This document shows, piece by piece, positions 4,715 through 63,554 of a stretch of DNA of 64,000 nt. A program made the translations under genes and the position numbers. The stretch covers positions 576,001 to 640,000 of the forward strand of contig JBBCGK010000001.1 in NCBI GenBank assembly GCA_037200965.1, given 5' to 3'. This DNA comes from a bacterium (GTDB lineage: Bacteria > Patescibacteriota > Minisyncoccia > Phycocordibacterales > Phycocordibacteraceae). Numbering within the stretch: position 1 is the first letter of the stretch; every line of letters starts with the position of its first letter. The notes beneath the pieces were generated by a model. The model made no database searches and had not been told where the DNA came from. It saw nothing but the letters and a program-made list of their open reading frames with translations.

Positions 4715-5737
4715 TTAATAGCCGTTAACGGGCGAAATGCTGAGAAACTGTGATCCGGGCTCTCCTGCGGGGACGACCACTCCCGCATCCTTGAATGTCT
4801 GTGCCATCGCGACGAACGCGTTGCGCATCGCGATGACGTCGTCAGGATACTTGGCAAGCCCGAGCGAAGTCAGGAGCGGATCGCGATCAAGCGCAGCGAG
4901 CTGTTGTGTCACTGTGCCCATGTTCGCGAGCGCGTTCGCGAGCGCGAGATGTTTCGTCGCGAGTTCCTCGGGTACCGGCACGCTGCTGAGGGCATGTGCT
5001 CCCCCGGTATAGGTCTCGGCGATCTTCCCTATCATGTCGAGCGCCTTTGTGTCGCTTCCACTTATCGCGTCTCCGAGATAGAGGAGCTCGCTCTTTTTTG
5101 AAGGGGCTGTATATCCGGCAAGCGTATTTTCAGCAGCGGCCGCGTAAGTCCGCATTGCTTCCGGGCCGCTTCCCGATACGTTCATTTGCCCGAGCGTAAA
5201 TGCATCCTGTTGCGGCACCGCGCGCTCCAATTCCGAAAGCGCGCTCGCGACGAACGTTGCCATATCGTCCGCGGAAAGAGGCGCTCCCTGATGCGCCGCG
5301 ACGTATTGCGCGAAGAATGCCTGGGCGAACTGCTCGGTGAGGGAGCCGGGAGCTGGCGCTTTCCCCGGAATGTTTTTTGCTATGGTCGAGGAAGCAACCG
5401 AGGATGCCGGTATCGGCGCCTTCGGCACGATAAGTCCCTGCGCGACTGCTTGCGCGTCCGTCATGCCCCGCCCGCCGGTGTCGGTCTTATCCGGATCCGT
5501 ACCGTAGAGCGACTCTTCCCAGTCCGGGAGGCCGTCGCCGTCGGAGTCTTTTACGGCTATGGCCTTGAGGAGATCGTCGGTCGTCCCGGCCTCCGCGTTC
5601 GACGCTTTGAAAAGATGCGGCCACTGCGGGATGAGGTACGCCGCAAACACCATTACCAGGGCAATGGCGAGCGCAACTGGCGTGCTCCATTGTTTCGTTT
5701 TGTTAGTCACACGCGTACCGTAAAGGATAGCACGCAA
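4715..5737 (-). CDS. membrane-anchored protein with thrombospondin-type-3-like Ca-binding repeat (DSDGDGLPDWEE, DPDKTD)
   Basis: N-terminal TM anchor followed by a DxDxDG acidic repeat. It is the first gene of the minus-strand operon 5737->16. Confidence 0.5.
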   Translation of the reverse strand: MRAILYGTRVTNKTKQWSTPVALAIALVMVFAAYLIPQWPHLFKASNAEAGTTDDLLKAIAVKDSDGDGLPDWEESLYGTDPDKTDTGGRGMTDAQAVAQGLIVPKAPIPASSVASSTIAKNIPGKAPAPGSLTEQFAQAFFAQYVAAHQGAPLSADDMATFVASALSELERAVPQQDAFTLGQMNVSGSGPEAMRTYAAAAENTLAGYTAPSKKSELLYLGDAISGSDTKALDMIGKIAETYTGGAHALSSVPVPEELATKHLALANALANMGTVTQQLAALDRDPLLTSLGLAKYPDDVIAMRNAFVAMAQTFKDAGVVVPAGEPGSQFLSISPVNGY

Positions 5738-5760
5738 GCCCGTTTTACCTCACTATACCT

Positions 5761-6543
5761 TCATGGTGTGTGCATAGCGCTGGCGAGGAGAAGCCATGTG
5801 GAAAGACCCAAATCTTCCGCGCGCGCCTTCTCCGGAACTTCCGCCGCAAGAAACGCATGTTGGATCGCTTCCGGTGCGGCGATTGCCTCCAAATTTCGCG
5901 CCAAAAGCTTCCTTTTATGGGCGAATCCGGCACGGATAGCCGAGAAAAAGGACTCTTCCTGGGCCGTATTCTTGAAATTAGCACGGCCGATGTTTTCTAT
6001 GGTGAGCACGGCCGAGTCTACGGCCGGAGCGGGCACGAACGCGCCTTTGGGGACCGTAAAGCGGTATTTCGGCTCGCCGTACGCCTTCACCGAAAGCGAA
6101 AGCAGGCTCTCCTTCTTGCTTCTGGCGATACGAACGGCCACCTCCTTCTGCACCAGAAGCGTCATCGAGGCGGGCTGGTGCGCGTCGGTAAGGAACCGGC
6201 GCAGGATCTCGCCGCTTATGTAGTACGGAATATTCGCCACGAGGAGATAGCGCTTCGGGAACGCTGCCGTGTCGAACGCGCGGATGTCCTCATGGATAAG
6301 CTCGAGCTTTCCTAAGCCAATCTCCGCGGCGAAGGTTTCCCGGAGTATGGGAATAAGCTCCTTATCGGTCTCGACGGCGACCACATGCCCGGCGCGCGAG
6401 AGGAGTTCCCGCGTGAGAAGCCCGGTTCCGGGACCGATTTCAAGTACGGTGTCTTTGGGGCCGATGCCCGCGGCATCCGCGATGCGTGCGGCAATCGAGG
6501 CGTGCATGAGAAAGTGCTGGCCGAGCGATTTCTTCGCGCGCAT
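5761..6543 (-). CDS. rsmA: 16S rRNA (adenine1518/1519-N6)-dimethyltransferase RsmA/KsgA
   Basis: Motifs KSLGQHFL, EIGPGTGLLT and NIPYYISG. Confidence 0.9.
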   Translation of the reverse strand: MRAKKSLGQHFLMHASIAARIADAAGIGPKDTVLEIGPGTGLLTRELLSRAGHVVAVETDKELIPILRETFAAEIGLGKLELIHEDIRAFDTAAFPKRYLLVANIPYYISGEILRRFLTDAHQPASMTLLVQKEVAVRIARSKKESLLSLSVKAYGEPKYRFTVPKGAFVPAPAVDSAVLTIENIGRANFKNTAQEESFFSAIRAGFAHKRKLLARNLEAIAAPEAIQHAFLAAEVPEKARAEDLGLSTWLLLASAMHTP

Positions 6544-7145: not shown

Positions 7146-10139
7146 TCACGCCTCGATGATACGTTCCTGTCCGGAATGTCTCATGAGCGCGGGATCGATG
7201 TCGTGCAAGAAGTTCGACGGCTCGGTGATAAAGTCGGCGCCGTAGATGCGGCGGATGCGTGCGAGCGTAAGCACGAGGCGTTTTTTCGCGCGCGTCATCG
7301 CGACATAGAAGAGGCGCCGCTCCTCTTCGTCGTCGTCTTCCTCGTTGCGCTCGTGCGGGAACAACCCTTCTTCAAGTCCGCTTACGAACACCAGATCGAA
7401 CTCGAGTCCTTTCGCCGCGTGCACCGTCATGAGCGTAACGCCCGTCTTCCCTTCAACGCGGTCGAGCTCGTCCTGGTCTCCCGCAAGAGCCGCGTCCGCA
7501 AGGAACGCCGCGATGCCTCCCCGCCCCGGAGTATCGTCGTAGCGCGTCGCCAGAGTAGCGAGCTCCTGGATGTTCTCGAAGCGTTCCTTCTCTTCTTCGT
7601 TTCCGTGCTCGAGTTCGGCCTTAAGCCCGCTCTTCTCGACGACGAGCCGCACGAACTCCGAAGGTGCCGCGCTTTCGGCGCTTCGCGAAAGTTCCCCGAC
7701 TATCGCTTCGAACGCCGCGACTTTCGCCTTCTCGCCCGCCCGGAGCTCGTCGCGCTTTCCTGCCGAAAGTTTCCCGAGCGTCGTCTTGCCGATGCCGCGC
7801 GTTGGCGCCTGCACCGCGCGCATCCGGTCCGCTTCGCGCGAGGGTTCAAGCGAAAGACGCACCCACGCGAGTACGTCTTTCACCTCCTTGCGGTCGTAGA
7901 ACCTCGTACCTAAGAGCTTGTACGAAATCCCTTCGGCAAGGAACGCCTCCTCGAGCGCGCGGGACTGGAAGTTAGTGCGAAACAGAACCGCGATTTCTTC
8001 CGGTGCCGTGCCGTTTCGTATCACGCGTCCCGTCTCGTGCGCGATCCAACGCGCTTCGTCTTCCGCGTTGTCCGCGACGTGGAGCGTGATCGGATCGCCA
8101 GGTGCGTTTTCCGTAACCGAGCGCTTTTCTTTCCGGCGCCGGTTTTTTTCGATCACGGCGTTCGCCGCGGAAACGATCGTCGCCGTCGATCGGTAGTTAT
8201 GCTCGAGCATGATGGTTTTCGCGCTCGGGTAGGTTTCGTCAAACGCGAGCAGGTTGTCTATCGTCGCGCCGCGCCAGCTATAGATGCAATTGTGCGTCGC
8301 GATGCCATTCGCGACGAAATTGTGTGTGCCTTCAATGTCGATGTCGTATACCCGCACTTTCCTTGCGGGGACGCGTTCAACCTTATCTACAAGGTCGTAT
8401 CCTCCCTCGGAATCAAAGACCGCCATGCCCGGCCGTACGCTTGCGGCGGGAAGGAGCGGAAGCGAATTCCCGTCCCTGAGCCTCGCCTTTTTCCCGCCAA
8501 GCCGTGCCGCACGCACGATGCTCGCGCTTGGAAACGCGACGCGAAGGCGTTCGACGCTTTCAAGCAGTGCCCCGTAACTCTTATGGGCGGATTCGAATCG
8601 CCAGCTGGCAGATCCTTTCTTTGCCGGACGCACGGAGAATCCGGCCTTTCGTAAAAGGATGCTGCCTTCCTCGTCGCTACCCACCACCGATATCCTGTGC
8701 ATTGTTGTTTCCCCGCGCCGGTCGCCGCACAACGTTATGTTGATGTTTCGCCGGTCGCTCCGGGTCGCCTGCGCGCGGTGGTGCGGATGCGCAGGAGAAA
8801 GGAAGAGGTCGTCCATAAGTTTCTTCGCACCGGACTCAGTATCGAAAGAAGCGAAGACGGAATCGATCGTTCCTTGATCATGAACGTATCCTCCGGTGCC
8901 GCTCCCCTTGCGCGCGACAAACGGGAGCGTCGGGATACCATATGAAAGGGACAGCTTGTATTCCATCACCCGTGCTGCCCGGGAAGTATCGTGTGTCCCG
9001 AGAACCCACACCGCGTCTCCGTGCTCCTGGTTGCAGCGCTGCTGGAATCCGGCCATAGCCAGGCGCTGTCCGTTCGTATAGGCGCGCGAAACGCCGAGCC
9101 GCCAGCCGACACCGTTTTTTGCCATGAGATACGTAAAATAAAGTTGCGGCATGAGTCCGAGCCGATATCCGGCGAAATGCACGTGTTCTGGCGTGCTCGT
9201 GAGGATCCGTCCCGCGGCCGTGGTTATGCGCACCAATGTGCCAGAGTGCGTCCGCTGCTTAGCGCGAATAACGCGCGCGGCGCGCGTATCGCCGCTTCCG
9301 TAGTTCGACCGAACCTCGTCGCCTATTCGTATCTTCTCGATGTTCCTTTCGGAACCGTCGGCCATTGCCACTTTCGTCCCGGCGACAAGGCATTGATCGA
9401 TATCTCCGACCACAAATACGTTCCCGTGCCGCCTGGAAAGCATGCCGACGAGCGTTCCTTGAAGCGCGTTCGTATCCTGAAACTCGTCAATGTGGAGATA
9501 GTCCCAGCGCTCCTGCGCGAGCGCACGTACGTCCTCATGCTCGCGCAGGAGCCGTACCGGAAGCGAGATGAGATCGTCGAAGTCGAGCGCTTTCTCTTCC
9601 CTCAGCGTTTTCTCATAGCGCAGCCACGCTTCGGCGACGATACGCCCCCCGAAGCTTTTGCGGCCATGCTCGGCATAGAAGCTCTCCGCGGTTTCTCCCG
9701 CTCCCTTGGCCTTCGATATGCGCGACAACACCGCTCTTGGCGAAAGTTCCTTCGTGTCGACATCAAGTTCCTTGAGAGCCTTGCCGATCGCTTTCTGGGA
9801 GTCGTCCCGGTCGAAGATGGTGAAGTGCCTCGGCACGCCGATCTTTGCGCCGTACGACTCGAGAAGCTCGCGGCCGAGCCCGTGGAATGTGGCGATGAAA
9901 GGCGGCCGGCCGCCGTGAAGAAGCCTTGAAAGCCGCTCGCGCATCTCGCGCGCGGCTTTGTTGGTAAAGGTGACGGCGAGGATCTTCTCGGCGGGCACCC
10001 CCTCCTTTATAAGGTGGTAAATCCGGGTGGTAAGCACCTTCGTTTTCCCCGATCCTGCCCCGGCAAGCACCGATACCGGGCCGGCGGTCGCGAGAACCGC
10101 CGCTTTTTGGGCGTCATTAAGGTCTTCGAGGTGGTTCAC
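7146..10139 (-). CDS. UvrD/PcrA-family ATP-dependent DNA helicase, intein-containing
   Basis: Walker A AGAGSGKTKVL and DEFQDT are present. Helicase motif III (VGDIDQ / CIYSWRGA) is split by a 368-aa insertion. C-terminal helicase motifs are intact. Confidence 0.85.
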   Translation of the reverse strand: MNHLEDLNDAQKAAVLATAGPVSVLAGAGSGKTKVLTTRIYHLIKEGVPAEKILAVTFTNKAAREMRERLSRLLHGGRPPFIATFHGLGRELLESYGAKIGVPRHFTIFDRDDSQKAIGKALKELDVDTKELSPRAVLSRISKAKGAGETAESFYAEHGRKSFGGRIVAEAWLRYEKTLREEKALDFDDLISLPVRLLREHEDVRALAQERWDYLHIDEFQDTNALQGTLVGMLSRRHGNVFVVGDIDQCLVAGTKVAMADGSERNIEKIRIGDEVRSNYGSGDTRAARVIRAKQRTHSGTLVRITTAAGRILTSTPEHVHFAGYRLGLMPQLYFTYLMAKNGVGWRLGVSRAYTNGQRLAMAGFQQRCNQEHGDAVWVLGTHDTSRAARVMEYKLSLSYGIPTLPFVARKGSGTGGYVHDQGTIDSVFASFDTESGAKKLMDDLFLSPAHPHHRAQATRSDRRNINITLCGDRRGETTMHRISVVGSDEEGSILLRKAGFSVRPAKKGSASWRFESAHKSYGALLESVERLRVAFPSASIVRAARLGGKKARLRDGNSLPLLPAASVRPGMAVFDSEGGYDLVDKVERVPARKVRVYDIDIEGTHNFVANGIATHNCIYSWRGATIDNLLAFDETYPSAKTIMLEHNYRSTATIVSAANAVIEKNRRRKEKRSVTENAPGDPITLHVADNAEDEARWIAHETGRVIRNGTAPEEIAVLFRTNFQSRALEEAFLAEGISYKLLGTRFYDRKEVKDVLAWVRLSLEPSREADRMRAVQAPTRGIGKTTLGKLSAGKRDELRAGEKAKVAAFEAIVGELSRSAESAAPSEFVRLVVEKSGLKAELEHGNEEEKERFENIQELATLATRYDDTPGRGGIAAFLADAALAGDQDELDRVEGKTGVTLMTVHAAKGLEFDLVFVSGLEEGLFPHERNEEDDDEEERRLFYVAMTRAKKRLVLTLARIRRIYGADFITEPSNFLHDIDPALMRHSGQERIIEA
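8289..9392 (-). other. intein (368 aa) inserted in helicase motif III; Cys1 (CLVAGTKV), terminal HN, +1 Cys
   Basis: N-terminal splicing block CLVAGTKVAMADG...IGDEV and C-terminal block VYDIDIEGTHNFVANGIATHN followed by the extein CIYSWRGA. No LAGLIDADG or HNH motif is recognisable in the central region. Confidence 0.7.
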
Positions 10140-10500: not shown

Positions 10501-11439
10501 ATGACCGTCGTTCCCGACCCGGGCCTCGCCCTTCTTGCTTCCCCGACCAATTCCGACCCGAATGCCGGAAGCGCTCCGGACGCCCCCGACACCACCGGGG
10601 GCGCTGCGCTTGTCGCCCATACCGGGCCTGCGGGCACCATCGCCGATATCGTCGAAATGCCCGCAAACGACCAAATTTCTACATATGTCGTTCGTTCGGG
10701 CGACTCGATTTCCGATATTGCCCAGATGTTCGATGTTTCCGTAAATACCATCATTTGGGCCAATAACCTGAAGAGCGCCAAGGATATTCATGTGGGACAG
10801 ACGCTCGTCATTCTTCCGGTCTCGGGCCTCAAGTACACGGTCGTTAAGGGCGATACGCTTGCGGGGGTCGCGAAGAAATACGGAGCGGACGCGGAAGAAA
10901 TAGCGCAGTTCAGCGGTCTTGAGGGTGCCGCGCCGCTTGTTGCCGGGCAAGTACTCATTATTCCGGGAGGCGAGCTTGCGGCTGCGGCTCCTGCGAAGAA
11001 AACCAGTACGTCGAAAACTCCTGCGAACCCGCTTCGCGGCGCGAGCGGTCCTTCCATCCCCGGCTACTACGGAAACCCTCTTCCGGGCGCCATTCTTACG
11101 CAGGGCCTTCACGGCAACAACGGCGTCGACCTCGGAAAGCCTTCGGGAGCACCTATCCTTGCGGCGGCGGCGGGTACCGTCATCGTCTCGAAAGCCGACG
11201 GCGCGTGGAACGGCGGATATGGAAGCTACGTGGTTATAAGCCACGGCAACGGCACCCAGACGCTTTACGCGCACATGAGCCGCGACATCGCGACGGTCGG
11301 CGAGACGGTCGCGAAGGGCGACGTCATCGGCTACGTCGGCCGCACGGGCGAAGCCACCGGCCCGCACCTCCACTTCGAAGTCCGCGGCGCGAAGAATCCC
11401 ATTCCCGCTTCCTGCGCCGTCGGGAGGGCGTGCTGGTAA
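10501..11439 (+). CDS. LysM-domain M23 family peptidoglycan metalloendopeptidase
   Basis: Two LysM repeats (YVVRSGDSISDIAQMF, YTVVKGDTLAGVAKKYG) and an M23 core (HGNNGVD ... GPHLHFEV). The in-frame upstream sequence encodes a signal-peptide-like stretch without a canonical start, so the N-terminus is uncertain. Confidence 0.85.
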   Translation: MTVVPDPGLALLASPTNSDPNAGSAPDAPDTTGGAALVAHTGPAGTIADIVEMPANDQISTYVVRSGDSISDIAQMFDVSVNTIIWANNLKSAKDIHVGQTLVILPVSGLKYTVVKGDTLAGVAKKYGADAEEIAQFSGLEGAAPLVAGQVLIIPGGELAAAAPAKKTSTSKTPANPLRGASGPSIPGYYGNPLPGAILTQGLHGNNGVDLGKPSGAPILAAAAGTVIVSKADGAWNGGYGSYVVISHGNGTQTLYAHMSRDIATVGETVAKGDVIGYVGRTGEATGPHLHFEVRGAKNPIPASCAVGRACW

Positions 11440-33539: not shown

Positions 33540-33770
33540 TGTACCCGACCCCGAGGCCTCGATCGGGGTTAGCGGCTACTCGCCAAAGGGCGTTGCGTTT
33601 GCCTCGCCTGGCCCAGTTCAGTACAGTGAGGGGGCACACTCTAGTGCTAGTTCAAGTGACCGAGGTGCATAAAGAAAAACCGCCTCTTGCGAAGCGGTTT
33701 AAGGTTGCGCCCTATCTTTATCCTGCCCAGCGCGGCAGTTCGATTTTTGGTTCTGTTGCCAAGCGGGTTT

Positions 33771-34532
33771 TCATCCCGCTCCGTTAATCTCCAAGAGCTC
33801 GCTCTCTAGTTCCCTAGCTATATGTGGCCAAGCCTCTTCCACGACTCCCGTTAATAGTCCGACGCGTTCTAAGTCGCGCACCATCGTTTCAACAGGGATA
33901 CTGAAGAAAAGACGACCTGATTTAGCGTAGTAACAAGGATGCGCTTCTGGGTCATGGCGATCTAGGATGTTCCATCCCTTAGTGGGACGATAACAATCTA
34001 AGATTTCCACCGTGCATTGTGGGAAGAGTTCCCCTAGCCATGCACGAAGACTCTCGCATCCCAATTCGGGATTACCGCGGAAGGGCTCATGATCTCCAAA
34101 GTGGGAAGTCCAGAGAGAAACGACCTTAGGCTCGCCGATCTTGTCGGCAACCATGCGAGCCACCTTTTGAAAGATAGCTTTCGTTTCTTCCAACCCGATA
34201 TCATGGGTCGACTTTTCTCCAAAGAGAGAGGCCGAAATCCCCCGAGCGATCAGCTGATCCAACCCACCGAAACGGAACTGTTTGGCGGATAGAAACAGAT
34301 CGCTCTTGCAGGTAAGGTCGGGGAGCCAATAGGAAGCCTCCTTTGCCTCCGTTTCCATATTGTCGCGGTCACGGAAGATACCTTGAAATCCACGAGGATA
34401 GGATTTCTCCCTCACCTCGTACCCAGCTATCTTCAATGTCTCCAGGATGCGTGGGACATACGCCTCGAATACATCGTTCGAGCGGTAAGTAACAAGTACG
34501 GTCTTAGTCATATGGTTGCCCTCCTGAGGCAT
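33771..34532 (-). CDS. hypothetical protein
   Basis: 253-aa ORF. The start may instead be the internal MTKTVLV. Confidence 0.45.
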   Translation of the reverse strand: MPQEGNHMTKTVLVTYRSNDVFEAYVPRILETLKIAGYEVREKSYPRGFQGIFRDRDNMETEAKEASYWLPDLTCKSDLFLSAKQFRFGGLDQLIARGISASLFGEKSTHDIGLEETKAIFQKVARMVADKIGEPKVVSLWTSHFGDHEPFRGNPELGCESLRAWLGELFPQCTVEILDCYRPTKGWNILDRHDPEAHPCYYAKSGRLFFSIPVETMVRDLERVGLLTGVVEEAWPHIARELESELLEINGAG

Positions 34533-34660: not shown

Positions 34661-35434
34661 ATGTCAATAATTCTTGACCAAACGGATAGCAAGGAGTTGA
34701 TTGAAGGGCTTGAGACGCTGGGCCTGAACGCTAAGGAGGCACAGGTCTATCTGGCCCTTTTGCCCCGTCGGGACGTCGGTTCCTCGAAGATTGTCCTTGC
34801 GACAGGCCTTCATAAGCAGTTCGTATACAATGCAATCGAAAAACTGGAGCAATTAGGCCTCATAAAGCATGTCATACAGAACGGCCGGAAGAAGTTCAGT
34901 GCCAATCCGCCGAGTCGTCTCCTCTCTATCGTGGAAGAGAAGCGCCTTGCCGCTCAAAACATGGCGAAGCGCCTCCAGGAACGCTTTATCGGCGCGCATG
35001 AGCAGGATTTCGAAGTGTTCCAAGGAGATTCGGCCGTACTTGCCCACCATTACGATATGTTCGAACGCATCGAACAGGACCAGGAAGCGCTCGTGATATC
35101 GGGACCCACCGAGACATTCCTTAAGATTATCGGCCCGGACGAGAAGGATGTATTCGAGGAAACGCGCGTAGCGAAAGGCCTTCGCATCCGCTATCTGGGT
35201 ATGGAATCGATGCGCGAACGGCTCATCGAGACGAAAAAATGGCGCAAGCTCTTCGATTACCGCATCCTGCCGGGCGGACAATCGACCGGCCAGCTCGATA
35301 TCGATATCTGGCCGAACAACGTCACGTACAACCTTTTCGGTGATCCTCTGCTCTCCATCACGATTACGAACAAAGCGATGACCGATGGATACCGGGAGTT
35401 CTTCGAGTCGCTGTGGAAGCTCTCGAAACCATAA
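34661..35434 (+). CDS. TrmB-family transcriptional regulator
   Basis: Sequence LGLNAKEAQVYLALLPRRDVGSSKIVLATGLHKQFVYNAIEKLEQLGLI. A TTGACG-17-TATGCT promoter-like element lies upstream. Confidence 0.75.
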   Translation: MSIILDQTDSKELIEGLETLGLNAKEAQVYLALLPRRDVGSSKIVLATGLHKQFVYNAIEKLEQLGLIKHVIQNGRKKFSANPPSRLLSIVEEKRLAAQNMAKRLQERFIGAHEQDFEVFQGDSAVLAHHYDMFERIEQDQEALVISGPTETFLKIIGPDEKDVFEETRVAKGLRIRYLGMESMRERLIETKKWRKLFDYRILPGGQSTGQLDIDIWPNNVTYNLFGDPLLSITITNKAMTDGYREFFESLWKLSKP

Positions 35435-53874: not shown

Positions 53875-54678
53875 ATGATTAAACTCATGAAAAAAAGACA
53901 AGAGGACGCGTCAGAAACGCTTCTGTCTTTAGGGCTTTCAAGAAGGGAAGTAGGAGTGTATATCGCGCTTTTAGAGCTTGGACACGGGACGGTCACCCAG
54001 ATATCAAGAAAGGCGGGTATAAATAGGACGACTGGTTACGATATCCTTGATGCGTTAGCGCACAAGAACCTCGCGCGGCTCTCCGGTAAGGAGCCAAAGG
54101 AAGAATACGTGGCTGAATCTCCGGAAAAGCTCGTTACGCTGCTTGATGAGAAGCTGGCAGAGACACAAAAGCAGCTGATCCTTGCGAAGGAATTTCTCCC
54201 GCAACTCAAAGCGATGCATACGGTTCAGGATCGTCCGCAAGTACGGTTCTATGAGGGTGTCGAAGGACTCAAAGAAGTATATGAAGACACTTTGACTTCC
54301 CCGGAACCGATTCGTGCGTACGCCTGTATCGACGACATGCACAAGGCGCTCCCCAACTACTTTCCCGAGTACTATAAACGTCGCGCGCGCAAAGGCATCT
54401 CGATACGCGGCATAGTCCCCGAGACAAAAACGGCGATGGCGCAGGCTGCGTTTAATGCGGAGGAAAAACGCGATATAGCGTTCGTGCCTGCCGATAAGTA
54501 TTACTTCTCTCCGGAAATAAATATTTACGCTAATAAAGTTATGGTGGCATCGTGGCGCGAGAAGCTCGGCATCATCATAGAAAGCGCCGAGATCGCTGAT
54601 GCCATGAAAAAGATATATGAGCTGGCGTGGGCAGAAGCCAAGCGGCTTGATGCGGCGAACTCACCGGTGTCGACATAG
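53875..54678 (+). CDS. TrmB-family transcriptional regulator
   Basis: Sequence LGLSRREVGVYIALLELGHGTVTQISRKAGINRTTGYDILDALAHKNL. Confidence 0.75.
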   Translation: MIKLMKKRQEDASETLLSLGLSRREVGVYIALLELGHGTVTQISRKAGINRTTGYDILDALAHKNLARLSGKEPKEEYVAESPEKLVTLLDEKLAETQKQLILAKEFLPQLKAMHTVQDRPQVRFYEGVEGLKEVYEDTLTSPEPIRAYACIDDMHKALPNYFPEYYKRRARKGISIRGIVPETKTAMAQAAFNAEEKRDIAFVPADKYYFSPEINIYANKVMVASWREKLGIIIESAEIADAMKKIYELAWAEAKRLDAANSPVST

Positions 54679-54714: not shown

Positions 54715-55854
54715 ATGAAAAGCGTTCGCGATATTCCGGTGCTTGAAAACGTACCGGTATTCGTGCGCTCGTCGCTCAATGTTCCGTTGGTAGATGGAAA
54801 GGTAGCGAACGCGTACCGCATCAAGCACGCGCTTCCCACCATCGAATTCCTCCGGAAAGAGAACGCGCGCATTGTTATCGGAAGCCATATCGGGGAAGCG
54901 GGAACCGAGACGCTCGAGCCCGTATACCTCGCGCTCAAGCAGATGCTCCCCGGCGTCTCGTTCTGCCCGGTCTCTACGGGTCCCCGGGCGCGCGAAGCGG
55001 TGCGGGCGCTTCTGCCGGGCGAAGTTCTCGTGCTTGAGAACCTGCGCAGGAATCGGGGGGAAGTGATGAACGACATGGCGTTTGCCGAAGCGCTTGCCGA
55101 ACTCACGGATGTCTTTGTCGAAGATGCGTTCGATACCTGCCATCGCGAGCACGCATCGATAGTAAGCCTTCCGACGCTCCTGCCTTCGTATGCGGGGCTT
55201 CAGCTCATCGAGGAGATCGCCGAACTCTCGAAGGCGCTCAAACCGAAGGCCCCGTCGCTCGCGGTCATCGGCGGCGCGAAGTTCGGCACCAAGGAGCCCG
55301 TGATCCGCAAGCTTCTCTCCCTCTACACGCACGTGTTTGTGGGCGGCGCGCTTGCGAACGATTTTCTCGCAGCTAAGGGCTATCCCGTGGGAAAGTCGCT
55401 CGTTTCGGGCGGAGATGCCGCCGCTACTAAAGAACTCTTGGTGGATAAGAAACTGGTGCTTCCGCTCGATTCGCTCGTCTGCAAATCCGGCGGCGCGAAA
55501 ACGCCCGGACAGGCACGTATCGCGGGACTTGATGACGTTCAGGAAGACGAAACCATCCTCGATCACGGCCCGAAGACGAATGAAATGCTCGCGAGATTGG
55601 CAGCCGGCGCGAAGACGATTCTCTGGAACGGGCCGCTCGGCCAGTATGAGGCGGGCTTCACGGAAGCGACGGATGCGCTTGCGGTCGCCATCGCCGACTC
55701 AGGCGCGGAGTCATACATCGGGGGAGGAGACACGGAAGCTGCCATCGACTCGCTCGGCCTCAACCGCCGATTCACGTTCATATCGACCGGCGGCGGCGCG
55801 ATGCTTTCGTATCTTGCGAAGGGGACGCTTCCGGGGATTGAGGCGCTGGGCTAG
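54715..55854 (+). CDS. pgk: phosphoglycerate kinase
   Basis: Full-length match to the PGK domain architecture (GSHIGEAG...STGGGAMLSYL). Confidence 0.9.
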   Translation: MKSVRDIPVLENVPVFVRSSLNVPLVDGKVANAYRIKHALPTIEFLRKENARIVIGSHIGEAGTETLEPVYLALKQMLPGVSFCPVSTGPRAREAVRALLPGEVLVLENLRRNRGEVMNDMAFAEALAELTDVFVEDAFDTCHREHASIVSLPTLLPSYAGLQLIEEIAELSKALKPKAPSLAVIGGAKFGTKEPVIRKLLSLYTHVFVGGALANDFLAAKGYPVGKSLVSGGDAAATKELLVDKKLVLPLDSLVCKSGGAKTPGQARIAGLDDVQEDETILDHGPKTNEMLARLAAGAKTILWNGPLGQYEAGFTEATDALAVAIADSGAESYIGGGDTEAAIDSLGLNRRFTFISTGGGAMLSYLAKGTLPGIEALG

Positions 55855-56111
55855 GTTCCGTACAGGTTATGGTGCGTGTCGATGTCCGTGAGGACGATGG
55901 CGTCACCTACCATCTCGTAGATGAGTCGCCAATCGCCGGTCACGTTGATGCTTCGAAAGCCCGTCCATTCTCCCCGCAAGGGATGGTTGTTAAGTAGCGG
56001 GTTTTGAGGATCGGCCATAAACAGCCTAAGGCGCTCGACGAGCGCGCGGCGGATACCAGCCGGTAGGCGCGATACTCGTTTCTCAAACTGTCGTTTGCGG
56101 AGAACCTGCAT
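55851..56111 (-). CDS. type II toxin, RelE/YafQ family
   Basis: Sequence LLNNHPLRGEWTGFRSINVTGDWRLIYE. Confidence 0.65.
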   Translation of the reverse strand: MQVLRKRQFEKRVSRLPAGIRRALVERLRLFMADPQNPLLNNHPLRGEWTGFRSINVTGDWRLIYEMVGDAIVLTDIDTHHNLYGT

Positions 56112-56113
56112 GA

Positions 56114-56383
56114 CTATGCGCGTATGGCGCGCGCGAATTCTTCAAGGGACGAAGCGATGAAATGCTCCGGATGTTCGCGGTATTCGCGGCTAAGCGCTTC
56201 CCATTCGCGCAGCTTCTCCGGACGCGGTACAAGCGATACCTCGAACCGCCCGTCGGAAACGAACTGCGCGAGCTGCGCGTTCATAACGGTAGTAAGGGGA
56301 ATGCCGAGCTTCTGCGCGGTGCGCTTCGCGGCATCCCGGAGCTTTTTGTCAGTCTTGATGGTGATAGTTGTTTTCGTATTCAT
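56114..56383 (-). CDS. type II antitoxin, DinJ/RelB family
   Basis: Sequence ITIKTDKKLRDAAKRTAQKLGIPLTTVMNAQLAQFV. It lies directly upstream of the toxin gene. Confidence 0.6.
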   Translation of the reverse strand: MNTKTTITIKTDKKLRDAAKRTAQKLGIPLTTVMNAQLAQFVSDGRFEVSLVPRPEKLREWEALSREYREHPEHFIASSLEEFARAIRA

Positions 56384-57793: not shown

Positions 57794-57848
57794 AGTAGCG
57801 TATCTTGCATGGGAAACGCTTCCGGGGACTGAGGCGCTGGAATCCTAG
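57794..57848 (+). repeat. degenerate duplicate of the pgk 3' terminus (would encode ..AYLAWETLPGTEALES*), direct repeat of 55805-55856
   Basis: CGTATCTTGC...ACGCTTCCGGGGA[T/C]TGAGGCGCTGG is shared with the pgk end (25 bp with 1 mismatch inside a ~45-bp ~85% match). Confidence 0.6.
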
Positions 57849-58615
57849 AGAGCCTTCCACATAAAGGCATGCATATTTTTAAACAGATTAGCGATATCCT
57901 TGTTTTCGATAACAACCGCAGATAAGTCCCGGAGACTTATAAGCGCGACCTTTTCGTTGAAAACAAGAACGTCGACATTGGACGTAAACCATTCGGGGAG
58001 CCGTTTGTCTGATTTATTTTCATATCCGTTCTTCTCGCGCAGAGCTCGCAGTTTTTTGTAGGTTTTAGCGCTTGCGATAAACAAATCCTTCGCCTTAAAC
58101 GCGTGATCGCTATTTGTCTTGTCGAAATCGCCGTATTCTGCTTCGGTGAAGTTTTCGAAGAAAATATCGGCGGGGAAGATGGAATACGTATCGCCGAGCG
58201 TTTTAAACAGTTCCTCGTAAATATTCTTGATCGCACGCTTTCCTTCGAAGAAGCCGACCTTGGGCTTGTTCGTCGCGCGTTCATATATCTTGCTCATGAC
58301 GGCGGCAGTCGAGTCGAATGCTAGAAGCTCCTTCCTAAGATTTGCGGCGACGGTCTTCGGATCGACTGCCGCGTACAGCGTGCGCTTGCCGATAGGTATC
58401 CGAGTAATGAAACCCTTTTTGAGCAGAAGATCCAGATATTCGTAGCAGGTAGCGCGCCGCACGTCCGCTTGGCGGACTATATCCGCGACTCCCATGCGGC
58501 TTTTCCCGAGAAGCGACACGTAAATCACCGCAGCCTTATCCGGCAAACCGATTCGTTCCAACTCCTTTATGAACGGGATATGTTCCATAAGTTCATATAA
58601 GCTGACTTGGAACAA
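57845..58615 (-). CDS. TrmB-family transcriptional regulator
   Basis: Sequence IGLPDKAAVIYVSLLGKSRMGVADIVRQADVRRATCYEYLDLLLKKGFI. Confidence 0.7.
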   Translation of the reverse strand: MFQVSLYELMEHIPFIKELERIGLPDKAAVIYVSLLGKSRMGVADIVRQADVRRATCYEYLDLLLKKGFITRIPIGKRTLYAAVDPKTVAANLRKELLAFDSTAAVMSKIYERATNKPKVGFFEGKRAIKNIYEELFKTLGDTYSIFPADIFFENFTEAEYGDFDKTNSDHAFKAKDLFIASAKTYKKLRALREKNGYENKSDKRLPEWFTSNVDVLVFNEKVALISLRDLSAVVIENKDIANLFKNMHAFMWKAL

Positions 58616-58720: not shown

Positions 58721-59245
58721 TTGAATACTGGGCGGGCTGGTATGGCGCTAAAATCAAAGACAACTCTGCAAACCAAACGCGGCATTTTCGAAGTCGGATA
58801 TTACGTTGTAGACGGGAATCCTTATGTTTCTTTCCGCTACGGGGATGTTTCCCAGGGCAGACCAATAGTGCGATTACAGTCGGCTTGCCTTTTCGGGGAG
58901 GCTTTCGGTTCGCTTGAGTGCGAGTGTGGCGCGCAACTTGCCAAGGCTCTGGACGCCATTGTTAGCCGCGGGGCGGGTCTTGTGCTCTATGCCTATGCGG
59001 AAGGTCGTGGCGCAGGGCTTGAGAAAAAGATAGAAGCTATGGAGATTCAAAGGACGACCGGATGCAATACAGTCGAAGCTTTTGACTCGCTTGGTCTTGA
59101 GAAGTCCGACTACCGGGATTATCAGGCTGAGGTGAACATCCTCACCGAGTTAGGCACAAGCCTCCATATCTGCTTGTTTTCGAAAAATCCAGCTCGATAT
59201 CAAGCGCTCAAAGACGCAGGCTTCGATGTAGATCCATATGAGTAG
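58721..59245 (+). CDS. GTP cyclohydrolase II (RibA)-family protein
   Basis: Motifs RLQSACLFGEAFGSLECECGAQLAKAL (zinc Cys triad) and EGRGAGLEKKIEA...NTVEAFDSLGLEKSDYRDY. The start may be the internal MALKSK. Confidence 0.75.
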   Translation: MNTGRAGMALKSKTTLQTKRGIFEVGYYVVDGNPYVSFRYGDVSQGRPIVRLQSACLFGEAFGSLECECGAQLAKALDAIVSRGAGLVLYAYAEGRGAGLEKKIEAMEIQRTTGCNTVEAFDSLGLEKSDYRDYQAEVNILTELGTSLHICLFSKNPARYQALKDAGFDVDPYE

Positions 59246-60140
59246 CTCGTCTGAGCTTATGTATCGTTGGCTTCGCGTATCTCCTACCGGAGACGGATAT
59301 ATCGAGCCCGATTATTACGATCAGCTTCTCAGAAAGTATATCTTTGATGGTAAAGAGGATACCGAGTACTTCCGAGAACATCTTGCAAAAGCACCTTCTC
59401 ATTCAGCATTTCTTGAGCTTGGCCCCGGGACCGGACGAGCGACAAATATACTATTCGCATCGGTTCCGGACATACATTCGCTTACGCTCGTTGATTTAAG
59501 CAGCCGTATGCTTAGTAGCTGCAAACAAGTTTTCACCCGCAAAGAATGCATTTCTTATGTCGTTTCCGATTCCATAGATTTCCTGTTGTCAGTGCAGTCG
59601 TCGTACGACTATATCTATAGCCTGTGGAGTCTTTCTCACTCCATACACAAGAATCTTGAAGACTTGGGAAAAGAAGACGGAAAAGCAAAAGTACGAGAGG
59701 CGCTCTTAAAAATGGTACGGGAGAATCTCAACCGGAACGGCTCTTTATTCCTGATACATTTCGATTCTTCCTCTCCCGAGCAGGAAATATCTATTCGGCA
59801 AAGGCGGCGCGATTCCCGTGACCGGAAATTGTTTGCAGATGTCTCCAAACAAAGTCCCTCTAAGGAAATACTCGACGAGTGCCTTGAAGAATTAAGGCGC
59901 TCGGGTGAGATCTGTTTTGAATGTGAGAGGCATGTAGGTACAGCGCTCGAATTCAGTTCGCTCGACGAAGCGCTCGAGTATTATCTTAATTTCCATATGG
60001 CTTCGTATTTCAATACCTCAAGTTCGATCGACGACATCTTGAAGGAGCTTTCTCAGGATTTACTGGAACACCAAGGGAGTGATGGAAAGATACGGATCGT
60101 TCCCGGTTGCTTCATCTACAAAGCAAGTAAGCCTGGTTAA
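59238..60140 (+). CDS. class I SAM-dependent methyltransferase
   Basis: Motif LELGPGTGRAT. Overlaps the upstream gene by 8 nt (ATGAGTAG). Confidence 0.6.
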   Translation: MSSSSELMYRWLRVSPTGDGYIEPDYYDQLLRKYIFDGKEDTEYFREHLAKAPSHSAFLELGPGTGRATNILFASVPDIHSLTLVDLSSRMLSSCKQVFTRKECISYVVSDSIDFLLSVQSSYDYIYSLWSLSHSIHKNLEDLGKEDGKAKVREALLKMVRENLNRNGSLFLIHFDSSSPEQEISIRQRRRDSRDRKLFADVSKQSPSKEILDECLEELRRSGEICFECERHVGTALEFSSLDEALEYYLNFHMASYFNTSSSIDDILKELSQDLLEHQGSDGKIRIVPGCFIYKASKPG

Positions 60141-60176: not shown

Positions 60177-60998
60177 CTAAGATACTTGGCTATTCATCAG
60201 ATCGCGCAAAAGCTCGTTCGCATCTATAAGCTGCGAATGCTCCTGCATAAATTCAAAGGCGGAAAGAATCATTTTTTGTATCTCCGAGTTCTTGACTTCG
60301 ACAATCAATCCTTCGCTTAAGGAGAAGAGATATAAGGAATCCTTAAATATCCAGCACTGGCCGCCATGCCTGAAGTACTTTGGATCAATAACATTGACTC
60401 TCGCGGTGCGTCCTTCGAAATCTTTCACCCATTGTATTCCTAGAGAACGCGCTTGTTCCTCAAGCCACCCGATTGGCAAGACAGCTTCGGTAATCGTACG
60501 GCCCTTCTTTATATCGCGGTTTATTCGGTTTGTTTCGGAAACGGTGAACAGGGTATTCCAACTCTTGGTCGCGCGGTCACCTTGGAAGCCCCAGAAGAAC
60601 CGTTGGTTCTTGTTCGCTTCAAAGAGCTCAAGCATGACCTTCCTAATTGCTTCTTTTCCCCGATAGATACATACCGTTGAGTCAGCGCGACCGTGAACCT
60701 GTTGGTTTCCTTCGGGTATTTGCAGCAAGAAACGCTTGAAATCGTATAGTGCCTGATCAATAGTATCTCCGCTATGCAATTGCCACCGCTTGCGTCCTTT
60801 GGCGATGCGCGAAACGGCCAGCCCTCGTTTATGCAGATTCGCCAAAATCGCATAAATGGCAGAGCGGGAGATTCCCGTCTGGCGAGTCAGCTTTAAGGGC
60901 GTATCCGCACCGTCGCGAAGCGCCAAGAGAATCTTCCTTTCCTTGATTGAGAGGCCGAGTATTCGCAGATCATCGTGAAGTGCCATACGGCAAAACAT
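60177..60998 (-). CDS. TrmB-like transcriptional regulator
   Basis: Sequence LGLSIKERKILLALRDGADTPLKLTRQTGISRSAIYAILANLHKRGL. Confidence 0.65.
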   Translation of the reverse strand: MFCRMALHDDLRILGLSIKERKILLALRDGADTPLKLTRQTGISRSAIYAILANLHKRGLAVSRIAKGRKRWQLHSGDTIDQALYDFKRFLLQIPEGNQQVHGRADSTVCIYRGKEAIRKVMLELFEANKNQRFFWGFQGDRATKSWNTLFTVSETNRINRDIKKGRTITEAVLPIGWLEEQARSLGIQWVKDFEGRTARVNVIDPKYFRHGGQCWIFKDSLYLFSLSEGLIVEVKNSEIQKMILSAFEFMQEHSQLIDANELLRDLMNSQVS

Positions 60999-61169
60999 AG
61001 CAAAAGGTATATAACCTGTCCACTTTCTTAGACAGATATATAAAGCATAAAAACCCTTATATACAGCTTATTTCCAGTATTACTCAACTTAGAGAATACC
61101 TTACTATACTGTCAATGTCTTTAGGATCATTCTTATAGAGGGAACTAGAACTTTATATGGGAGACCGCT

Positions 61170-62318
61170 ATGGCTTGCGAAACGAACGAAGTGCCGCAGG
61201 AAGTGACCGCGATCGATCGTTGGATTGACCACGTATTGCACGGAGAAAAGGATACTGCGATTCCAACGTTACTTGGTCGGGAAGTTCCACCTCTTTTGTC
61301 GTGGATAGTGCGGGGCGGATGCGCGATACAGTGCCGCCACTGCATCTTTCCTCACGAAGGCCCGAAAACCTTCGGCGTGCAAACGGGCGAGGAAGCGCTT
61401 CTCGGCATTCTCCGCCAGTTGTCCGGTTCGCGCCACCTCATTCACGAAGGAAGGCAGCTACTTCCGTGGCAGGTACCGATCTTGGCGGCTGCAGGCCGCG
61501 CAGGACACGGAGTATCGCTTATCAATAACGGACAATATGCAGCGCCGAATATGCTGGCGCTATGCGAGCGAGAGGGGCTCGCAATCGACGCGCTTGACGT
61601 GTCGGTCGACGGTACGAAAGATATCCACAATGGACAGCGCGCGAGCAATAATGCCTGGGACATCGCAATGAAAGGGATTGTGCATGCCAAGCACATACTC
61701 AAGACCGATGGCAAACTTACTTCTCTCTTCACGCTCACCACGCTCAATCACGCGCACTTAGCCGAAACGGGAGAGATGCTCACGCAGGTGGTCGATGAAT
61801 GGCACGTGACGACGATGTCGTTACGGCCGGGGATCGAGCACCTGCGGGCAGGCGATCGCGAACTCGCCTTAGCGCTTGAACAATTGCTCGGCGGCAACTT
61901 CGCGAAACCAGTGTTCCTGCGTACCTATTCTCTCGACGATTTTGTCGCTCTGCTTGGAATTCTCGGAAAAGAAACGGCAAATAGGGTTCTCAGGAACGCG
62001 CTGGTGACTTATAACGCCATCGTACTCGATATCGGAATACCCCTGTACTTCTATCCTAAGTCCCTGCAGGTGAATGAAACGTTAGTGATCGACGCGGATG
62101 GGTGGTGGCGTCTGCCGTTTTGCATCCATCACTCGCTTGCGGAACTGCGGGCGGGAGAGGATGAGATGGGCAAGGATATTTCGCATTTCAATGTCGTCCC
62201 GGTACTGCCGTGCGTGGATGTCCCAACTCTCCATGCCAAGGCCGCATCGAGATGGTGGGTCAGTATAGGCCGGGATTGTTTATCGCTTGAGCGCCAGGCG
62301 CTCGAAGCGTTTCTCTAA
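61170..62318 (+). CDS. radical-SAM-like enzyme (CxxxCxxC: GGCAIQCRHCIF) with C-terminal Cys residues
   Basis: N-terminal Cys triad in typical rSAM spacing. Three further Cys near the C-terminus. No other family assignment is possible by eye. Confidence 0.5.
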   Translation: MACETNEVPQEVTAIDRWIDHVLHGEKDTAIPTLLGREVPPLLSWIVRGGCAIQCRHCIFPHEGPKTFGVQTGEEALLGILRQLSGSRHLIHEGRQLLPWQVPILAAAGRAGHGVSLINNGQYAAPNMLALCEREGLAIDALDVSVDGTKDIHNGQRASNNAWDIAMKGIVHAKHILKTDGKLTSLFTLTTLNHAHLAETGEMLTQVVDEWHVTTMSLRPGIEHLRAGDRELALALEQLLGGNFAKPVFLRTYSLDDFVALLGILGKETANRVLRNALVTYNAIVLDIGIPLYFYPKSLQVNETLVIDADGWWRLPFCIHHSLAELRAGEDEMGKDISHFNVVPVLPCVDVPTLHAKAASRWWVSIGRDCLSLERQALEAFL

Positions 62319-62341
62319 CAACCGGAAAGGAGGTGAAAACT

Positions 62342-62461
62342 ATGTCCGGAGCCAATACCGGTTCCGCTGGCGTGGATGCGAAAGCACGTCCGCCAGTGCA
62401 ATCGTCAGGGGCGAATACCGGTTCGACGGGCGTAACGACGCCGCGTTTGCCGCGTAAGTAG
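62342..62461 (+). CDS. 39-aa repeat peptide MSGANTGSAGVDAKARPPVQSSGANTGSTGVTTPRLPRK, candidate RiPP precursor/substrate
   Basis: Strong SD AAGGAGGTGA 8 nt upstream. Begins 24 nt after the rSAM-like stop. Two copies of SGANTGS[AT]GV. A nested hairpin (62472-62515) lies downstream. Confidence 0.4.
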   Translation: MSGANTGSAGVDAKARPPVQSSGANTGSTGVTTPRLPRK

Positions 62462-62738
62462 CCTCGGTGACTACAGAGAGCCCGTTCACGCTTTTGATTC
62501 GCGTGGGCGGGCTCTTCTCTTTTATACACTAAATGTGATTCTCGATGTTTCTTTAGAATCGATCGGTCGCCGTTCGCGTAGCCGAGACGGGTCTAACAAT
62601 CGAACGATAGCGGCGCAATGCTCAAGTCTCTTGCGGCTGAATGTTTTCAGCGATTGAAGCATTGAGAGACTAAACAGATTACTCTATTCATAAAGACGCA
62701 TATACCACCTCGTAAAGTCACCCAATACCGCTTTGGTA

Positions 62739-63554
62739 TCAACGACGAATATGAAAATCCTTGGATATACGGCGTTTCCACGCGGCGGCTTTCCCAGGGT
62801 CTTTAGCAATTTTTACCTTTGATGTAACTTCGTGATCTAACTTCTTCAACTTATCCTTGGCGCGCTCAAGGTCGGTTTCCGTTTTAAAGAGAAGTTCGAC
62901 TGCCTTTCGAGCTTTGGGATTAAAACGCACTTCAATCACCCATTCGTGGATTACGGCAATAAACACTTCTTGACGAACTTTCGGCGAGTACGATACCTCA
63001 ACGTTAGAGAATGCGAGCTCCCGGGTTGCGAGCTTGTCGAGCGCCGAAGAGGAGCCGATGAGAAGATAGGCTCTTCTTCCTTTTGCTCCAAGGAGCATAT
63101 CGTGGCTTTTGTCGCTATCGCCACGCAGTACACTCGACCAATTATGCGGATTAAAGAGGTAAAGGTGCTGGCGGTGAGGAACACCCTTTTCAATTACTGA
63201 AAACAGATGGGACCATATCCGATCCATAGCAGTAAGACCATGAATGGTAAGCGTGATCTCTTCTCCGCGTTCAAGCTGACTGAAGTCGCCGAGGATGGAA
63301 CTGTTTTTATATTCGACAAGCTGGCGAAGCTGCTTTAACCAATGTTCGCTTACCGATACGGCAGAACGGTAGACGATAACCTTCTCTTGCGCTCTCAGCT
63401 TTCTAAGCGCCCTATAAAAACCCTGCTTCGTGCAGGCGTGCTTCCTCCTCAGGCCTTTAAGGAGCTCAGTAGTCGTAACCGCTCCTTTTTGAAGTACAAA
63501 AGTAAGGACTGAATCTTCAAGGCGGCTGCCTAACAGTTGCATAGCAGTAAACAA
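62739..63554 (-). CDS. uncharacterised winged-helix regulator-like protein, paralog family X (3 of 3)
   Basis: 271 aa, homologous to 12985..13788 and 26571..27374 (FNPHNWSS, IGSSSALDK). Confidence 0.55.
   Translation of the reverse strand: MFTAMQLLGSRLEDSVLTFVLQKGAVTTTELLKGLRRKHACTKQGFYRALRKLRAQEKVIVYRSAVSVSEHWLKQLRQLVEYKNSSILGDFSQLERGEEITLTIHGLTAMDRIWSHLFSVIEKGVPHRQHLYLFNPHNWSSVLRGDSDKSHDMLLGAKGRRAYLLIGSSSALDKLATRELAFSNVEVSYSPKVRQEVFIAVIHEWVIEVRFNPKARKAVELLFKTETDLERAKDKLKKLDHEVTSKVKIAKDPGKAAAWKRRISKDFHIRR

Follow-up and report, generated by a model that had tools for sequence, protein, structure and literature searches.

Does a divergent radical S-adenosylmethionine (SAM) enzyme gene, followed after a spacer of 23 nucleotides (nt) by a 39-codon open reading frame (ORF) for a repeat peptide, belong to a peptide-modification system, and if so, what are the other components and the likely chemistry? 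The question is raised by a locus near the end of the DNA analyzed here, positions 576,001 to 640,000 of contig JBBCGK010000001.1 (assembly GCA_037200965.1) from an ultra-small bacterium of the patescibacterial family Phycocordibacteraceae; the whole stretch of 64,000 nt is referred to as the window. A preliminary description of the locus, made from the sequence alone, had interpreted enzyme and peptide as a system resembling those for peptides that are ribosomally synthesized and then modified post-translationally (RiPPs); both the superfamily placement of the enzyme and the conservation of a neighboring peptide support that interpretation. Based on comparison with related loci, we consider it probable that the locus is a three-component cassette restricted to Patescibacteria, comprising a regulator, a radical SAM maturase, and one or more leaderless (often multi-core) precursor peptides, and the cassette suggests an undescribed peptide-modification system. 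Neither the divergent TrmB-like regulator nor the leaderless nature of the peptides formed part of the preliminary description. The enzyme–peptide unit has the following features:

61170..62318, plus strand: divergent single-cluster radical SAM enzyme, 382 residues, with C51-x3-C55-x2-C58 and a C-terminal domain without auxiliary-cluster cysteines
62327..62336, plus strand: Shine-Dalgarno (SD) sequence AAGGAGGTGA of the peptide gene, read from the sequence; most related loci have an SD of the AAGGAGGTGA type before their homologous peptide genes
62342..62461, plus strand: 39-codon precursor-like peptide gene, product MSGANTGSAGVDAKARPPVQSSGANTGSTGVTTPRLPRK (two core units, basic Pro/Arg/Lys tail)
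62345..62374, plus strand: core unit 1, SGANTGSAGV
62405..62434, plus strand: core unit 2, SGANTGSTGV, 23/30 nt identical to unit 1
62476..62524, plus strand: intrinsic terminator of the radical SAM–peptide transcription unit, with a 16-bp stem and a U-rich tail

Enzyme and peptide genes in the window

The enzyme ORF carries the motif GGC51AIQC55RHC58 and ends with a TAA stop at 62316-62318, which leaves a spacer of 23 nt before the ATG of the peptide gene (62342); the latter ends with a TAG stop at 62459-62461, and its GGAGG lies 8 nt from the ATG. All features on which the preliminary description drew (a CxxxCxxC enzyme, a 39-codon ORF with SD, a repeat peptide with a basic tail, and a hairpin) are in place. 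A longer 42-residue version of the peptide starting from a GTG at 62333 was considered and rejected, because this codon sits within the SD and because most single-unit homologs open with M-[SAG]-[GA]-A-N at an ATG. The stem arms of the terminator (62476-62491 and 62501-62516) are followed by UCUCUUUU, and the hairpin has a minimum free energy of -30.3 kcal/mol (z = -5.0), with none of 200 shuffled sequences being as stable; comparable hairpins are present 3' of the peptide genes in related loci L001, L005, L007-L009, and L011. The peptide gene is followed by this terminator and then by a gene of opposite orientation (62739-63554), so that enzyme gene and mini-gene make up a single transcription unit.

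The two core units are identical at 77% of their nucleotides, fewer than the near-identity that had been claimed for them, and of the seven differences, five are third-position changes that leave the amino acid unaltered. A recent internal duplication, which had been proposed on this basis, is not borne out: the differences are mostly synonymous, and peptides with several units are found in distant lineages as well; the repeat is therefore either old or kept by selection.

By profile and fold searches the enzyme belongs to the radical SAM superfamily: 49 of 50 members of its family match Pfam PF04055 (Radical_SAM) at E<=0.01 (best E 1.4e-8), and the predicted fold agrees, while the window protein on its own scores 23.1 bits, below the gathering cut-off of 29.5. 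Against NCBIfam, the N-terminal half of the enzyme has weak matches to NirJ/AhbC/SPASM-type models, with a weak and partial match to HxsB (E = 0.0018), and scores of E = 0.014 for TIGR03942 (anSME) and E = 0.21 for viperin. The AlphaFold2 (AF2) model is confident (pLDDT, the predicted local distance difference test score, of 91.7) and contains the partial TIM-barrel core fold of radical SAM enzymes, with viperin, DesII, and BlsE among the best structural matches; the best sequence match in the PDB is BlsE (E = 0.0025). The protein is a genuine radical SAM enzyme, and in its predicted structure it is closest to the peptide-maturase branch, yet single-cluster. Relatives numbered 53 in a database search, nearly all from metagenome-assembled genomes (MAGs) of Patescibacteria, and 75 clusters at E<=1e-30 in an exhaustive profile search of 1.84 billion representatives; judged from these sequence searches, the family is small and divergent.

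The only invariant cysteines of the family are C51, C55, and C58, both in an alignment of 50 sequences and in one of 70 sequences that adds the most distant members, and the C-terminal cysteines of the window enzyme are not conserved. Pfam searches of the window enzyme and 50 family members found no SPASM (PF13186) or Fer4 domain, no cobalamin-binding domain, and no RiPP recognition element (RRE)/PqqD domain. The N-terminus in the AF2 model consists of only two short helices.

Peptide genes and regulator at related loci

Related loci (designated by L numbers) were taken from GTDB genomes, JGI metagenomes, and exact protein look-up (L096-L098), and 24 of them, the window included, have flanks usable for assessment. 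All 24 contain peptide mini-ORFs next to the enzyme gene (23 clear, L014 tentative), with one to four per locus, on the same strand and within a few hundred nt, encoding peptides of 11-62 residues. Thus, the expectation that homologous loci would keep a small, often repeat-containing peptide beside the enzyme was borne out. Several loci are close relatives (L013 with L059; L007, L008, and L053 together), so the independent observations number fewer than 24; the enzymes nevertheless span down to 25% identity. Relative to the enzyme gene, the mini-ORFs are upstream in some loci and downstream in others, which argues for a functional rather than a positional linkage. Strong AAGGAGGTGA-type SDs are upstream of most peptide copies. 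Representative peptides are:

L001: MATANVGSTG...GGANVGSAG...TGANVGSTG..., three units
L003: peptides MAAANTGSTGVGKPRPPK and MSGANTGSTGVTQPRPPK
L005: peptide MAGANTGSAGVGKPRRPKKGKK
L008 and L053: MGGANTGSTGK and MDSGASTGSAGK, 11-12 residues
L010: ...TN[TA]GS[IV]RK...
L011 (Saccharibacteria): two units
L012 and L013: M[RH]K[AT]CDAAANTGSAGRSGRGQPP[PS]R, upstream of the enzyme gene
L054 and L055: N[LVI]NSGSA[CG]

The peptides share the core G-A-N-[TV]-G-S-[AT]-G, reduced to N-x-G-S in distant clades, in one to three units per ORF. The Gly-Ser dipeptide is invariant in all variants and the Asn nearly so, being replaced by Ser in some Moranbacteria copies. The core begins at residue 2-3 in most peptides, and peptides of the Moranbacteria type total only 11-12 residues. 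Cys, Trp, Tyr, Phe, and His are missing from the window peptide, and conserved Trp, Tyr, Phe, or His are absent from every core examined; Cys is sporadic, restricted to L012/L013 and L054/L055, and has no conserved position. Pro, Arg, and Lys are abundant in the tails of many lineages (KPRPPK, RPTPPKKK), a composition reminiscent of the PRP motifs in those proline-rich antimicrobial peptides that target the ribosome.

The motif variants follow the enzyme clades: enzymes of at least 41% identity are paired with GAN[TV]GS[AT]G and a PRPP-type tail, the Moranbacteria type (32-35%) with GA[NS]TGS[AT]GK-stop, the 29% clade with N[LVI]NSGSA, and the 25% clade with AANTGSAGRSGRG. Codons vary synonymously at every conserved residue (GGA/GGG/GGC/GGT, GCN, AAT/AAC, ACN, TCN/AGC), and this turnover beneath constant amino acids indicates selection on the peptide sequence rather than on RNA. 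A strict form of the motif ([GASTV][AVGS][NSD][TVAS]GS[ATSG]G) was counted in six-frame translations: the 25 related loci (394,014 residues) contain 29 occurrences, whereas 70 loci of unrelated radical SAM genes (1,151,042 residues) contain a single one, located in a low-complexity stretch. The enrichment is approximately 85-fold per six-frame residue, and the motif does not occur elsewhere in the window. Judged by this pattern of conservation, the 39-codon ORF (62342-62461) is a real gene.

Existing annotation misses these genes systematically, as they are uncalled in most of the assemblies examined, including all three whose gene calls were inspected. An exact look-up of eight peptides in a collection of 15 billion proteins returned three, all unnamed, and not the window peptide. 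No candidate with enough shared words was found in a protein database for the 42-residue GTG-start version, nine peptide variants had no NCBIfam match at E<=10, and a degenerate DNA pattern had no match in IMG/VR.

Certain loci depart from the usual arrangement of the peptide gene. In L053, the radical SAM ORF (4845-6167; protein P0053) reads in frame and without a stop into the 11-residue peptide MGGANTGSTGK, with the internal SD and ATG retained, whereas in its close relatives L007 and L008 the enzyme ends at a TGA inside the SD; P0053 is either a natural enzyme–substrate fusion or the product of a one-nucleotide assembly error. L007 also contains three additional, near-identical peptide 3' ends (GASTGSAGK-stop) with a GGGTATAC...GTATACCC terminator, spread across 3.5 kb (8341-8373, 9798-9830, and 10672-10704); two of these lack a convincing start or SD, one adjoins a homolog of window ORF 62739-63554, and they look as if a module of peptide tail and terminator had been duplicated. 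Tandem peptide cistrons in one frame and without an intervening stop are present in L002 (7310-7462), L096 (about 5400-5599), and L097 (about 5470-5662), so that the SD of the second cistron (AAGGAGGTG, read as K-E-V or K-G-G) is translated within the first; one DNA sequence could thereby yield both a long multi-core and a short precursor. The first of two upstream peptide genes in L006 (5570-5630; …ISNTGSVGVTRPRPVR) has a good SD and no ATG, GTG, or TTG; the sole candidate in frame is ATA, so that either a sequencing error or a non-canonical start is suggested.

Beyond enzyme and peptide, all-against-all clustering of neighboring ORFs identified a divergently oriented gene for a TrmB-like regulator as the only further conserved neighbor. 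It is present upstream in 23 of 26 related loci, with truncated contigs accounting for the exceptions, and among the loci obtained by protein look-up it is encoded in L096-L098. TrmB-like genes at this position are of two sequence subtypes, and the window copy resembles the subtype of L012 and L013. The same clustering found no conserved protease, transporter, RRE protein, or second tailoring enzyme, and no conserved nucleotide- or sugar-pathway gene nearby. In the window, the genes and the intergenic region that flank the enzyme–peptide unit are as follows:

60177..60998, minus strand: TrmB-like winged helix-turn-helix (HTH) transcriptional regulator, 273 residues, divergent from the radical SAM gene (Pfam TrmB PF01978, 25.9 bits, residues 11-61)
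60999..61169, no strand: AT-rich divergent intergenic region with repeated GTATATAA/TTATATAC boxes, a putative promoter/operator region
62739..63554, minus strand: second predicted HTH protein, 271 residues, convergent on the peptide gene, of uncertain membership in the system

The box repeats lie at 61005-61014, 61034-61043, and 61057-61064, and a promoter-like site for the minus-strand regulator at 61022-60994.

The cassette occurs across MAGs labeled Adler-, Nomura-, Taylor-, Morani-, or Paceibacterota, as well as Saccharibacteria, and it appears to be confined to Patescibacteria; a few other MAG labels, such as Gammaproteobacteria or Micrarchaeota, are probably binning errors.

Proposed modification and alternative explanations

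Based on these data, the locus is probably a radical SAM-dependent, RiPP-like system in which the enzyme clade and the precursor family are new and the chemistry is probably new as well. We propose that the TrmB-like regulator would control the divergent promoter, and that the radical SAM gene and mini-gene(s) would be co-transcribed up to the intrinsic terminator, with the peptide translated from its own strong SD. The enzyme, with its single [4Fe-4S] cluster, would then bind the short core (G-A-N-[TV]-G-S-[AT]-G, minimally N/S-x-G-S) directly, without leader or RRE: with the core at residue 2-3 and some peptides only 11 residues long, recognition would have to be of the core itself. Reductive cleavage of SAM would yield a 5'-deoxyadenosyl radical that abstracts a hydrogen atom within the core, most likely at the invariant Gly-Ser dipeptide (Gly C-alpha, or Ser C-alpha or C-beta); judging from its invariance, the peptide is probably modified at or near this dipeptide. 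Each core unit of a multi-unit precursor would be modified independently. Two outcomes would be favored by the lack of an auxiliary cluster and of conserved Cys: a Ser-centered oxidation or cross-link, in which the electron would return to the radical SAM cluster, or a redox-neutral rearrangement or elimination.

Known chemistries fit this core poorly. As it offers no thiol or aromatic partner, links of the sactipeptide, ranthipeptide, cyclophane, streptide, and darobactin types are disfavored: sactipeptides and ranthipeptides need core Cys donors, which the window peptide lacks, and cyclophanes (triceptides), streptide, and darobactin involve an aromatic core residue, of which none is conserved. 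The preliminary description had already considered sactipeptide, ranthipeptide, and cyclophane chemistry unlikely from the composition of the window peptide, and the related peptides, together with an enzyme that is devoid of SPASM/twitch cysteines, reinforce this. Its suggestion that epimerization or C-methylation would be compatible is contradicted by the enzyme family. The radical SAM peptide epimerases PoyD and YydG/EpeE use a strictly conserved non-cluster Cys as hydrogen-atom donor (PMC8326336), and no such Cys exists in the 70-sequence alignment, which disfavors epimerization of this type. Class B (cobalamin-dependent) C-methyltransferases carry an N-terminal cobalamin-binding domain, the absence of which, by Pfam, likewise disfavors class B methylation. 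With no well-characterized radical SAM peptide reaction fitting the core, a new reaction type is plausible; as the substrates can be purchased as synthetic 11-mers, the chemistry is directly testable in vitro.

The comparison with known systems further sets the cassette apart. The SPASM/twitch maturases (SkfB, SuiB, CteB, PqqE, ChlB, anSME) are 11-15% identical to the window enzyme and have auxiliary-cluster cysteines that are absent throughout the family, and their systems differ from the present one, which lacks an RRE and a leader and whose substrate contains no conserved Cys, Trp, Tyr, Lys-Trp, or Glu-Tyr pair. In particular, anSME acts on C/S-x-P/A-x-R using two auxiliary clusters, in contrast to the S-[AT]-G-x context of the peptides described here. 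The Hxs (His-Xaa-Ser) system (NCBIfam TIGR03978 and related models) has a short repeat peptide with a tiny polar motif beside radical SAM enzymes. It is alike in placing a short polar-repeat peptide next to a radical SAM gene, but has H-x-S rather than N-x-G-S, two radical SAM enzymes plus HxsD, and another taxonomic range, so that the likeness is below the family level. Biarylitides have very short leaderless precursors, described as the smallest reported precursor peptide (PMC12951456); there, as proposed here, the core is recognized directly by the tailoring enzyme, which is an unrelated cytochrome P450 that cross-links aromatics. Streptococcal RaS-RiPP loci combine a regulator, a radical SAM enzyme, and a short precursor with a family-defining core motif (PMC13361665); they differ in having an Rgg regulator with an SHP pheromone, SPASM enzymes, leaders, and usually transporters, whereas the regulator here is TrmB-like. 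Of the features general to RiPP clusters, a precursor gene conserved beside the tailoring enzyme was found in all assessable loci, and a leader or follower with an RRE or other recognition domain was not. The peptides match no model in Pfam, NCBIfam, or PADLOC, nor does any such model specifically identify the enzyme, and a literature search found no publication on the motif or on a radical SAM–peptide system in the candidate phyla radiation (CPR).

The strict synteny, the motif variants that track enzyme clades, and the variable copy number, which resembles that of multi-core RiPP precursors, are as expected of an enzyme–substrate pair, and the in-frame run-on in L053 (P0053), the terminator after the peptide gene, and the regulator in 23 of 26 loci also count toward a cassette of regulator, maturase, and precursor. 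Several observations weigh against it: the RRE, leader, protease, and exporter that are usual in RiPP clusters were not found in the enzyme family or among conserved neighbors; the enzyme lacks the auxiliary cluster that most peptide cross-linking radical SAM enzymes carry; its single-cluster structural neighbors (viperin, DesII, BlsE) use nucleotides or sugars; and in an AF2 prediction of the natural fusion P0053 the peptide tail is disordered (pLDDT <50), which gives no support for docking. A more specific proposal is that a single-cluster radical SAM enzyme performs an undescribed modification on a Cys-free, aromatic-free Asn-x-Gly-Ser core in leaderless peptides as short as 11 residues, defining a new RiPP class confined to the host-dependent Patescibacteria; this we advance tentatively, as a possibility that we would not yet call probable. 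If true, the product could serve in symbiont–host interaction or signaling, or be the ligand of the paired TrmB-like regulator. The natural-product and signaling capacity of Patescibacteria/CPR is almost unexplored, and this cassette, of three genes, is small and sequence-defined.

The same structural neighbors raise the alternative that the substrate of the enzyme is not a peptide but a nucleotide, sugar, or cofactor intermediate. The encoded peptide would then be an unmodified small protein with a separate role, for instance as a basic effector rich in Pro and Arg, or in binding to or partnering the TrmB-like regulator. Viperin, DesII, and BlsE are single-cluster lyases, dehydratases, and decarboxylases of nucleotides or sugars, and BlsE is also the best sequence match in the PDB, though just at E = 0.0025; the lack of an auxiliary cluster, an RRE, and a conserved non-cluster Cys, and of a conserved protease or exporter, would agree with such a role. 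However, none of these three enzymes has an associated peptide gene, whereas here the pairing with the peptide is kept across enzymes just 25-35% identical and several candidate phyla while the other neighbors change, and the motif follows the enzyme clade; moreover, a peptide of 11 residues is too small for a folded protein partner, and no nucleotide- or sugar-pathway gene is conserved nearby. We therefore regard a non-peptide substrate as unlikely. It is very improbable, and we judge it already refuted by the conservation data, that the small ORF is no functional gene and instead arose by chance, belongs to an RNA element, or is translated as an attenuator of a gene further downstream. Its omission by gene callers in most assemblies and the absence of the window peptide from the protein collection could be read in this way, but the conserved amino acids with synonymously variable codons, the strong SDs at most copies, and the contrast between 29 motif hits and one in the controls argue otherwise; the terminator and convergent gene 3' of the ORF leave nothing downstream to attenuate, and an Rfam scan of three related loci, which did not extend to the window, found no match in their peptide regions.

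A further possibility refines and overlaps with the proposed maturase–precursor cassette: the modified peptide could be a signal sensed by the adjacent TrmB-like regulator, in autoinduction or cell–cell communication comparable to the Rgg/SHP RaS-RiPP loci, rather than an antimicrobial or cofactor. Apart from enzyme and peptide, no gene but the regulator is conserved, and its orientation is divergent throughout; L007 has an extra HTH gene close to its additional peptide-like copies, and an HTH gene is convergent on the peptide gene in the window; these arrangements are compatible with signaling. Nevertheless, TrmB-like regulators are abundant in these genomes, the two regulator subtypes at the divergent position mean that the pairing may be plain transcriptional control, and no exporter or importer is conserved, and on balance we think that a signaling role is quite improbable. 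Two readings of the locus were rejected. A defence-system role as a prokaryotic viperin, for which a match to pVip models and a defence-island context would be expected, finds only PADLOC pVip matches of E = 0.004-0.006 (about 14 bits). A phage-borne origin is not indicated by tblastn against phages or by the IMG/VR DNA pattern scan, neither of which gave a phage or viral match.

Neighboring genes and recurrent elements

The HTH protein encoded at 62739-63554 has no match in Pfam, NCBIfam, or PADLOC, and its sole homolog among the related loci (L007, 8441-9433) is likewise convergent to a peptide-like copy; this shared placement may be coincidence. The window encodes four TrmB-like paralogs, at 34661-35434 (plus strand), 53875-54678 (plus strand), 57845-58615 (minus strand), and 60177-60998 (minus strand), three of them within the last 12 kb, and together with the unclassified HTH gene these indicate a large expansion of such regulators in the genome.

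Upstream in the window, a GTP cyclohydrolase II gene (58721-59245, plus strand; PF00925, E = 3.8e-33) overlaps by 8 nt with a gene for a class I SAM-dependent methyltransferase (59238-60140, plus strand). This pairing is unusual; a role for the two genes (58721-60140) as pathway partners of the cassette was rejected, since they are conserved in no related locus. At 55851-56111 and 56114-56383 (minus strand) the window encodes a RelE/ParE/YafQ-type toxin-like protein, the gene for which is preceded by a small antitoxin-like gene. The toxin-like ORF clusters with a similar ORF in L012, and near the cassette in L096 is a toxin gene annotated by Pfam as ParE/YafQ, next to a small ORF.

A short conserved hairpin element, GGAGCGGG-(loop)-CCCGCTTGGCAACAGAA with TTGGCAACAGAA after it, is found repeatedly between cistrons or where genes end, and it flanks the peptide genes in three related loci: in L002 at 7147-7179 and 7487-7519; in L003 at 7177-7210, 7492-7521, and 8360-8393; and in L006 at 7226-7255 and at two more sites after peptide genes. 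No Rfam family matched the element or the peptide-flanking regions in a scan of L002, L003, and L006. We rejected the element as an RNA specific to this system because the same motif is present in the window at the 3' end of an unrelated ORF (33771-34532, minus strand), on the minus strand at about 33745-33790; it may function across the lineage in RNA processing or at 3' ends. In L002, a LOOT RNA (RF03000, 51 bits) is encoded at 2096-2229 on the minus strand, about 4 kb from the cassette.

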